Source: Pocillopora damicornis (Eukaryota). From it: a stretch of DNA of 64,000 nucleotides. The position numbers were made by a program, and so were the translations under genes. This document shows, piece by piece, positions 23,639 through 25,101 of the stretch (positions are counted from its first letter, which is position 1; each line of letters opens with the position of its first letter). The stretch covers positions 124,001-188,000 of the forward strand of contig NW_020844911.1 in NCBI RefSeq assembly GCF_003704095.1, given 5' to 3'. The notes below the pieces were generated by a model that ran no database searches, was not told the origin of the DNA, and worked only from the letters and a program-made list of their open reading frames with translations.

Positions 23639-25101
23639 GAGGTTCCTTGACTGCTGCTGTTGGAGATGGACAAGTTGACGACACATCTGCCATTCAGGCG
23701 ATCGTCAACCAAGTTGCAGGTTCAGACAACAACAAGGTTTTCTTTCCTCGTGGTGAGTACCTGGTCAGCCGTAATATTGCTATCCGTGGCTCAGTGAAAC
23801 TTCATGGAACCCAGAGCGGTATTGCAGTTATCAAGGCGTCGACTCCATACGCCAAAGAGATACACAACGCTAAACCAGTAAAGCATGTTTCCCTGAAGTA
23901 TCTGTATTTTGACGGAATTCGTGTAGAATTTGATGGCGCGACCAAAGGGCCGTCATCCACAAGTAACATTACAATAGAGAGCTGTGTATTCTTTTCATCG
24001 GGAAGTGCAATTCCAGGCGACGGGAAGAGGAGACAACTAGTTATGATGAATCTTGAGAACAGTGGTGTTTACAAAAACGTATTTTTACGCGATTCAGGTG
24101 CATATGGAGTTGCTTCAAGATATGCCAGCACTCTGAGCGTTGAGGTAACTGGCAACGTATGTGGCCTCGATTTAAATAGTTTAGACTGGTTGTCCTCTCA
24201 AATTGAGCCAGTAAACCATTGGCGAACTCAAAAAAAGAAATTACAATATCTTAAGACTCATTACAATCTTGTATCTGACCAAGGCTTCTTTAAAAGTTGT
24301 CTTTATAGCCAGTGCGATAAAAGAATGAAAATAGCCAAAAACATTTTGAACGGAAGTCCCAATACCAGTCAGCACAGAGATCATGCCATGTACTTCAAAG
24401 GTTTTGATACCCTGGAAGTAAATAATAACTACGTGAGTGGTTGGCCTTCGAATCCATCAGGTGGCATCAAAGCTCGAAATGGAAAAAATCTTCGGGTTGT
24501 TCGTAATTATTTAGACGACACAAGTATTTTATTGTTTACGTACAGAAAAGCCAAGGCCTGTCTTCATGATGGTCTCAAGAACGTTACGGTCTACGGAAAC
24601 CACATCGTACAGCGAACAAGGCTTGGTGGAGCAAAAAGCGGAGTAGGTTATTATGAGCCTCATTACGCTGGAAAGGATGTGAATATCAAGTATTCTGCCA
24701 ACGTATTTGAGATCGTTGGAGTCAGTAACTTGGCTCTGTTCGCATGCATTTGGCTGACCAATGGCAATTTGTCTCAACATCACGTGTACAGAGACAACAT
24801 ATATTATGGAACCACGATGTCAGTGACGATTGAAGCGCGCAATCGTATTGCAACATATGAAACAGGGGATATAGACCCAGAAATCAAAGATCTGTACAAC
24901 TATACTGCATATAAACTGAACATTCCACATTATCAACCCACCACACCTGAACATCAGCATCCATATTCTCCTATCCTATTCCACCATTCTCTCTATTTTT
25001 CTGGCAAGGAGAACTTGTTTAACAATCAGGAGCTTGTTAAGTTGGTGATCATTTCCTTTCTTCTCGTGACTTTAATGTGTGATTCAGGGGTGATATTTTA
25101 G
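23639..25101 (+). CDS. Intronless right-handed beta-helix protein with an N-terminal Pectate_lyase_3-type motif (glycoside hydrolase/lyase-like); 5' end lies in a gap
   Basis: About 485 uninterrupted codons after the gap. AVGDGQVDDTSAIQA...KVFFPRGEYLVS..I...SVKLHG matches the GxxGDGxTDDTxAIQ..v.fP.G.Y.vs motif. Repeated beta-helix turns (NITIESCVF, VTGNVC, VNNNYV, VVRNYL, VTVYGNHI). Confidence 0.8.

Follow-up and report, generated by a model that had tools for sequence, protein, structure and literature searches.

A beta-helix gene family of likely bacterial origin in corals, seen through a partly hidden copy in Pocillopora damicornis

The window analysed here, a stretch of 64 000 nucleotides of the Pocillopora damicornis genome, contains a long open reading frame (ORF) for a microbial-type beta-helix domain among animal genes, which raises the question of what this frame is, where it came from and what its product does. 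An earlier note, made from the sequence alone, took it for an intronless, horizontally acquired gene for a polysaccharide-degrading enzyme. The best explanation, to which we give a probability of about 55 %, is that the frame represents the final exon of a member of a coral gene family, that this family likely passed from bacteria into the ancestor of stony and soft corals, and that it would encode a secreted beta-helix enzyme, likely a lyase acting on uronic-acid glycans. The features are listed in Table 1.

Table 1. Features at the beta-helix locus (positions are those of the window)
Feature	Position	Strand	Remarks
5' exon of left neighbour, MRPL1-like	21774..22053	-	RNA contigs; head-to-head with the ORF, across the gap
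Assembly gap, 100 N	23539..23638		directly 5' of the ORF
Visible part of last coding exon, right-handed beta-helix domain	23641..24933	+	431 codons
Predicted active-site stretch, D247 H248 Y251 K253 K277 R279	24379..24477	+	conservation over 88 rows; strand positions on model
Dispersed MITE-like repeat	24933..25144		left end overlaps the old stop codon
C-terminal extension, 55 codons, hydrophobic end	24934..25101	+	read-through of the old stop
First exon of right neighbour, STOML1-like	26969..27169	+	same gap-free contig as the ORF

On the forward strand, an open frame of 487 steps starts at 23641 and reaches its stop codon at 25099-25101, and the motifs quoted in the earlier note are present in it from 23641 onward. 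The run of about 430 intron-free codons placed at 23639..24933 is real as an uninterrupted plus-strand frame from 23641, but it ends at 25099-25101 and not at 24933. At 23641 there is no start codon, and the frame begins at the edge of the assembly gap. Public contigs extend into this gap from both sides, reaching 285-361 letters upstream from 23639 and 623 letters past 23496, and the gap is therefore likely larger than 100 bases and likely contains the 5' exons. Two introns would be hidden in it, together with the signal-peptide and linker exons and the first part of the last exon, for which we infer about 22 codons. The Pocillopora verrucosa orthologues have 89-110 extra N-terminal residues that include a hydrophobic stretch. 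No match to the 5' exons of the window copy was found in the window or elsewhere on its scaffold, and a search of the own genome for them returned paralogue exons alone, with all 7 matches lying on other scaffolds.

The own genome gave five family matches from six candidates, namely the window copy, two open paralogues (73 and 58 % identity) and two pieces broken by stop codons. P. damicornis gene models agree with the paralogue loci at 99.8-100 %. In both intact paralogues, a short signal-peptide exon and a basic linker exon can be read from the sequence, each followed by a GT-AG intron, and the two introns upstream of the big exon are in phases 2 and 1 in both. The designation as an intronless gene is consequently rejected, on the gap at the start of the frame, the missing start codon, the longer P. 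verrucosa orthologues and the two introns in each intact paralogue; the family is spliced, and the window copy is probably no exception. Nor is a long exon unique here, and a fucosyltransferase-like frame of 394 codons is found at 35238-36422. The GC content of the ORF is 0.42 (GC3 0.40), and three host exons have values of 0.42-0.45 (GC3 0.38-0.45). Pairwise dN/dS values among the three paralogues are 0.40, 0.50 and 0.40.

A word-based protein search recovered 42 proteins, 41 of them at 52-98 % identity, and the named ones come from Stylophora, Oculina, Montipora and Dendronephthya. Cluster look-ups added P. verrucosa, Pocillopora meandrina, P. damicornis, Porites and Paramuricea. Two P. verrucosa proteins share 96-98 % identity with the window protein. 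For one Montipora cluster, Logan contigs of 1.8-1.9 kb (P0394/P0397) encode the joined signal-plus-domain protein, and a genomic contig of 213 kb (P0395) gives intron read-through. Elsewhere, a tandem cluster of the family (G000:C3714:270500-291300; L006-L008) contains one intact copy, a second whose 5' exons are intact but which a gap interrupts, another copy of exon 1, and a fragment broken by a stop codon. Because the automatic gene models P0058/P0059 (L008, 3117-3355) and P0128/P0129 (L010) begin within intron 1 or with exon 2, they lack the signal peptide, which is encoded by exon 1 of the DNA. An octocoral-type member at 185-1762 (minus strand) of a 1841-bp contig (L028), 69 % identical to Dendronephthya P0437, has a signal-like N-terminus in the frame of the domain, and is either a cDNA or from an intronless lineage.

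In two polyA runs of a single study, RNA contigs of depth 3-7 together span most of the ORF. Contigs of depth 2-4 in the same runs cover a paralogue intron, and transcription of the window copy is therefore weakly supported. When RNA contigs were aligned with a paralogue, no splice joint of the window copy was seen. One contig of the window copy matches the paralogue from the acceptor site of the exon, whereas the 295 letters ahead of it differ, and splicing and a diverged intron fit this equally well.

The window copy has several peculiarities. Among 40 coral-type rows, F299 and S266 occur in it alone, Y and R being present in the other 39, and from these substitutions (Y299F, R266S) it would be a partly altered copy. 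F299 is found in all 15 listed members of its cluster, which numbers 345. The paralogues end TAT TAA or TAC TAA directly after the last Tyr, and the window copy reads TAT CAA and continues into a tail that includes a 19-residue stretch with a hydropathy of 2.37. The full tail is present in 11 of the 15 listed members of the same cluster of 345; of the remaining four, one terminates at the old stop position, one is frameshifted and two are cut short. Thus, the read-through tail is common, but not fixed, among Pocillopora alleles. The tail coincides with a dispersed repeat that has 15 further blastn hits in the window and very high contig depth. Its ends as read from the sequence, TCAACCC and GGGTTAA, form a reverse-complementary pair with one mismatch, its termini were not called in the repeat finding, and 'MITE' is our own label for it. 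The repeat-derived tail is a candidate anchor, and the window copy may be tethered to the membrane by it.

The domain belongs to PF12708 (residues 6-177, E 2.8e-14, 53.9 bits against a cut-off of 27), and the structure predicted by AlphaFold2 from a 70-row alignment is a right-handed parallel beta-helix (pLDDT 95.5, pTM 0.94), so that PF12708/Beta_helix membership is based on a cap motif above the cut-off and on the modelled fold. Six asparagines (N234, N263, N289, N320, N354 and N386) form a near-invariant ladder. Alignment of the model with VIA-align over 48 161 chains placed AlgE4 first (Z 32.2, rmsd 2.8, 323 aligned), followed by RbmB (29.9), 8JA4 (29.4), a tailspike (29.1), PfbA (28.9) and K5A lyase (28.8). 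Identities among the fold matches are 9-18 % overall, 12-18 % for the leading matches and 15-16 % for AlgE4 and RbmB. The non-enzymes PfbA (Z 28.9) and NosD (Z 27.8) and the GH28 hydrolase (Z 27) score nearly as high as the enzyme matches, and the PL6 and GH28 folds have Z values of 22-24 and 24-27, respectively. Foldseek of the AlphaFold model, which the earlier note had proposed as a check, ranked PfbA first (E 1.6e-8).

In sequence, matches to solved structures cover the N-terminal cap only, including the best of them, to GH55 (E 3e-7); NCBIfam profiles likewise hit only the cap, and the ESM Atlas gave only generic beta-helix clusters. The likeness to Pectate_lyase_3, GH55 and GH28 proteins claimed earlier is consequently confined to the cap, and over the core the window protein matches no named family, as had been noted. 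Database names on members include 'mannuronan C5-epimerase AlgE6-like' and 'alginate lyase 7-like' (RefSeq), and others are GH28/GH55-related. The AlgE/AlgG catalytic motif YxFDPH occurs in none of the 88 rows. The GH28 motifs NTDG, GHG and RIK are found in 4, 0 and 0 of these rows, and the PL1/PL6/PL9 family motifs RxPxxR, WiDH, NGFK and xKS/RHG in 0-7 rows each, and the window protein has none of the GH28 or PL motifs. A GH55 beta-1,3-glucanase was considered and rejected, as that type has two tandem beta-helix domains in about 750 aa, whereas here there is one domain, with a cap that matches each GH55 half.

The residues that are conserved suggest a chemistry. DHxxY is present in 87 of 88 rows, the exception being one Paramuricea row that lacks the stretch, K277 is kept in all 88, as is R or K at position 279, and among the acids D247 alone is invariant. 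In the model, Y251/K253 and K277/R279 lie on successive predicted PB1 strands (250-253 and 276-279), and strand alternation would have both pairs facing one cleft. In a lyase mechanism, K277 would take the C5 proton, Y251 would give a proton to the leaving oxygen, and H248, R279 and K253 would neutralize the carboxylate, with calcium unneeded. We consider lyase activity of the family enzyme, as predicted here, to be somewhat more probable than its absence.

Known beta-helix lyases offer partial precedents. For PsAly (PL31, 6KFN; PMC6796002) and FdlA (7XZ7; PMC9410043), a Lys base and a Tyr acid have been proposed, and FdlA is described as metal-independent, with His and Arg as neutralizers and a basic groove with His, Arg and Asp, the residue types conserved in the coral family. 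However, the two differ from the coral family in having Z values of only 23.1 and 20.1, 10-13 % identity and no sequence match, and the Tyr-Lys spacing, 26 in the coral family, is 37 in PsAly and in reverse order in FdlA. RbmB of Vibrio cholerae (9OZD; PMC12993940) is a closer fold match (rmsd 2.5) and is a beta-helix lyase with a proposed lysine base and a groove lined by arginine, but it is 15 % identical, periplasmic, VPS-specific and stimulated by calcium.

It is unlikely that the family is a non-catalytic glycan-binding or matrix protein in corals, with the window copy a decaying or tethered binder. The two substitutions and the repeat-derived tail of the window copy would agree with this, as would the broken copies, dN/dS values (0.4-0.5) that indicate moderate constraint only, and an adhesin, PfbA, as the top Foldseek hit. 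However, D247, H248, Y251, K277 and R279 are kept in the window copy and across corals and bacteria, which fits catalysis better than mere binding.

Rather unlikely is a C5-epimerase or epimerase/lyase of the same origin, which would remodel uronic-acid polymers and not cut them. The AlgE-type C5-epimerases (2PYG, 5LW3) and 8JA4 resemble the coral family in their single right-handed beta-helix, the same N-terminal cap and secretion, AlgE4 is the top fold match by more than 2 Z units over RbmB, and the first catalytic steps are described as common to lyases and epimerases (PMC4444821). The conserved Asp-His-Tyr cluster and the RefSeq epimerase and alginate lyase names on some members can be added to these. 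However, AlgE4 is only 16 % identical, the AlgE sequence match covers the cap only, YxFDPH is missing from the family, the coral members lack R-modules, and the genes that neighbour bacterial relatives (see below) are degradative.

We regard a glycoside hydrolase of the same origin (GH28-, GH55-, GH87- or GH110-like) as improbable. Hydrolases of these types use two or three carboxylates, whereas D247 is the sole invariant acid here, and the GH55 hits that are the best PDB matches do not extend beyond the cap. The Z values of GH28 folds and the GH28/GH55-related database names favour a hydrolase, and the near-absence of GH28 motifs from the rows argues against it.

For the preferred reading, a lyase, the clue to a substrate comes from bacterial loci. 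At one (L015), the gene order is sigma, anti-sigma, SusC, SusD, family relative, GH20, PL33-like protein, GH88 (E 1.6e-92), two GH29 and sulfatase, and the PL33-like protein matches 8R73, a PL33 deposit (PMC11848413), at E 8.5e-169. At a second (L027), a sulfatase and a chondroitinase ABC (E 3e-99) precede a relative with 30 % identity to the coral protein and 67 % identity to tree row P0187. Both relatives fall in the bacterial group that adjoins the coral clade. The GH88 at L015 may instead serve the neighbouring lyase. A GAG-lyase context was seen at two of the five bacterial loci with neighbours in view and not at the other three: a short contig (L029) has only a lactonase fragment beside the relative, and the two plasmid loci inspected (of 12), both from Enterobacter, have unrelated genes or genes for fimbriae and c-di-GMP. 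Among substrates, the strongest candidate is a chondroitin-like glycan, sulfated and present in mucus, matrix or food, and we propose a chondroitin-like one tentatively, at less than even odds. Of the earlier proposal of an enzyme that degrades algal or microbial glycans, the carbohydrate-active beta-helix is upheld, but the sole clue indicates glycosaminoglycan-like uronic-acid glycans, not specifically algal ones.

These two plasmid loci have further features. On one Enterobacter plasmid (L030, NZ_CP074155.1, 7012-21018), a distant member lies in a fimbrial and c-di-GMP cluster near blaFRI-11, a context that hints at a biofilm role for that branch. In L031 (NZ_CP056780.1, 1-13338), a member is about 6 kb from a large gene annotated as a neuraminidase-like domain protein, a label also used for toxin-complex subunits.

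The relatives of the family also bear on its origin. When 1.84 billion representatives were searched without a profile, 547 matched at E <=1e-3, 28 of them at <=1e-30, and the best 150 of the 547 were listed. Among the matches listed, those after the coral-like rows are full-length proteins with 25-36 % identity and signal peptides. In a scan of 44 proteins, non-coral relatives carried T9SS, CBM96, SLH, RTX or Ig modules, with CBM96 on several. Named bacterial relatives include a Prolixibacteraceae MAG, the Bacillus cereus group, Streptomyces and Paludibacterium, and so span Bacteroidota, Bacillota, Actinomycetota and Pseudomonadota; relatives were also found on 12 plasmids, 11 from Enterobacter. 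Of the 401 genomes searched from the phylum of L015, three have cap-only hits and just one, the starting genome, has a full-length member, so the family is rare there. A related-locus search gave 56 pattern matches in genome contigs, with one confirmed, and 38 in metagenomes, with none confirmed. A motif scan found three metagenome loci and, in viral sequences, no loci.

A tree was built from 80 near-full-length domains, with fragments, cap-only hits and most near-duplicates left out, and was rooted on distant bacterial-type rows. It included 26 stony-coral-type rows (12 tied to a named coral), 6 octocoral or unknown rows and 48 bacterial-type rows (5 tied to a named bacterium). All 32 coral-type rows group in a single clade (support 100/98) nested among the 48 bacterial-type rows, with row P0179 as sister (92/97). 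A constraint that kept the 25 nearest bacterial rows together, a group chosen after the tree had been seen, cost 43 log-likelihood units and was rejected (AU p 0.008). The phylogeny called for in the earlier note thus supports the horizontal transfer it had proposed, though not its use of missing introns as an argument, as the family is spliced. The coral clade lies within bacterial diversity in this tree (5 of 48 outside rows named), and own-genome paralogues, GT-AG introns and host-like composition are those of an integrated gene with host-type structure. We conclude that the family very probably originated by transfer from bacteria.

The deepest coral-type lineage includes a named Dendronephthya protein, and in a quick tree of 88 rows Dendronephthya is in two deep lineages, the deepest one and the sister lineage of the stony corals. 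This points to one transfer into the anthozoan stem, followed by duplication before octocorals and stony corals split. The transfer is likely ancient and common to both groups, not recent.

We consider it very unlikely that there was no transfer, with an old eukaryotic gene lost from most lineages or with many of the 'bacterial-type' rows in fact eukaryotic. Although 43 of the 48 outside rows lack a name, many of them carry T9SS, CBM96, SLH, RTX or bacterial Ig modules, the named relatives are from four bacterial phyla, and the corals nest inside these rows. No named full-length match to a non-coral eukaryote was found in protein searches, in which most hits lacked names and the word-based searches missed known members.

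Gene transfer into corals is, as such, already well known. Table 1 of PMC4878875 lists 41 transfer events in Anthozoa, none named as a beta-helix or polysaccharide lyase and three 'predicted' or 'hypothetical'. A second study (bioRxiv 10.64898/2026.05.06.723128) reports 126 events, and its main text does not contain 'lyase', 'pectate' or 'polysaccharide'; its Table S6 may list the coral family. Known Anthozoa transfers share with this family a bacterial source, presence in both Hexacorallia and Octocorallia, and flanking host genes. Term searches of the open-access literature found no paper on the coral beta-helix family. Two new alginate lyase families are named, without sequence or fold, in section 7 of bioRxiv 10.64898/2026.05.19.726164.

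The coral family resembles a beta-helix lyase, yet is filed in no named family, and as a lyase it would be a polysaccharide lyase family matched to no solved or named one. Breakdown of uronic-acid glycans is described as the work of hydrolases in multicellular eukaryotes and of lyases in bacteria (PMC11848413). If reef corals possess a domesticated, expanded and secreted lyase of bacterial type, they have one more enzyme for turnover of acidic polysaccharides in mucus, skeletal matrix, food or biofilms. The fullest version, that corals have owned a bacterial-derived GAG lyase of a new lyase family since before the stony/soft coral split, with a transposon-derived membrane anchor in Pocillopora, is possible but doubtful; its role would be to remodel or digest acidic, sulfated glycans, whether of mucus, of the skeletal matrix or of microbial films. 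Because it has a single domain and clear candidate residues, and because two loci point to a substrate, the coral family is a tractable way into an uncharacterized bacterial enzyme family.

The remaining question is whether the locus is host DNA. There is no N within 23639-28398, and the ORF and the first STOML1-like exon are therefore on one contig. A single polyA RNA contig joins this exon (26969-27169) to a Band_7 exon at 29698-29904. Profile matches of the right neighbour are Band_7 (E 0.002) and, on the last exon, SCP2 (E 7e-18); one downstream exon of the left neighbour has a weak Ribosomal_L1 match (E 0.011). The placement of the ORF between MRPL1 and STOML1 is thus sound on the right, and both neighbour identities are consistent with it, but the link to MRPL1 crosses the gap and depends on scaffolding. 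Bacterial contamination of the assembly, to which the start of the ORF at a gap could be attributed, has negligible probability and is ruled out by the spliced paralogues on other scaffolds, the orthologues in other coral assemblies, the host exon on the ORF contig and the host-like composition, in agreement with what had been argued earlier.

Two further observations concern other genes in the window. Near-identical, convergent long frames at 35238-36422 (plus strand) and 36471-37259 (minus strand), with a gap between them, encode a fucosyltransferase-like protein (FUT8_N_cat, E 2e-5, and NodZ, E 0.036, both below the cut-off), and the pair is either an inverted duplication or an assembly artefact. 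At 14505-16585 (minus strand), an FKBP-type isomerase has a signal peptide and a long acidic insert, and the C-terminus HDEF is encoded in a downstream exon.
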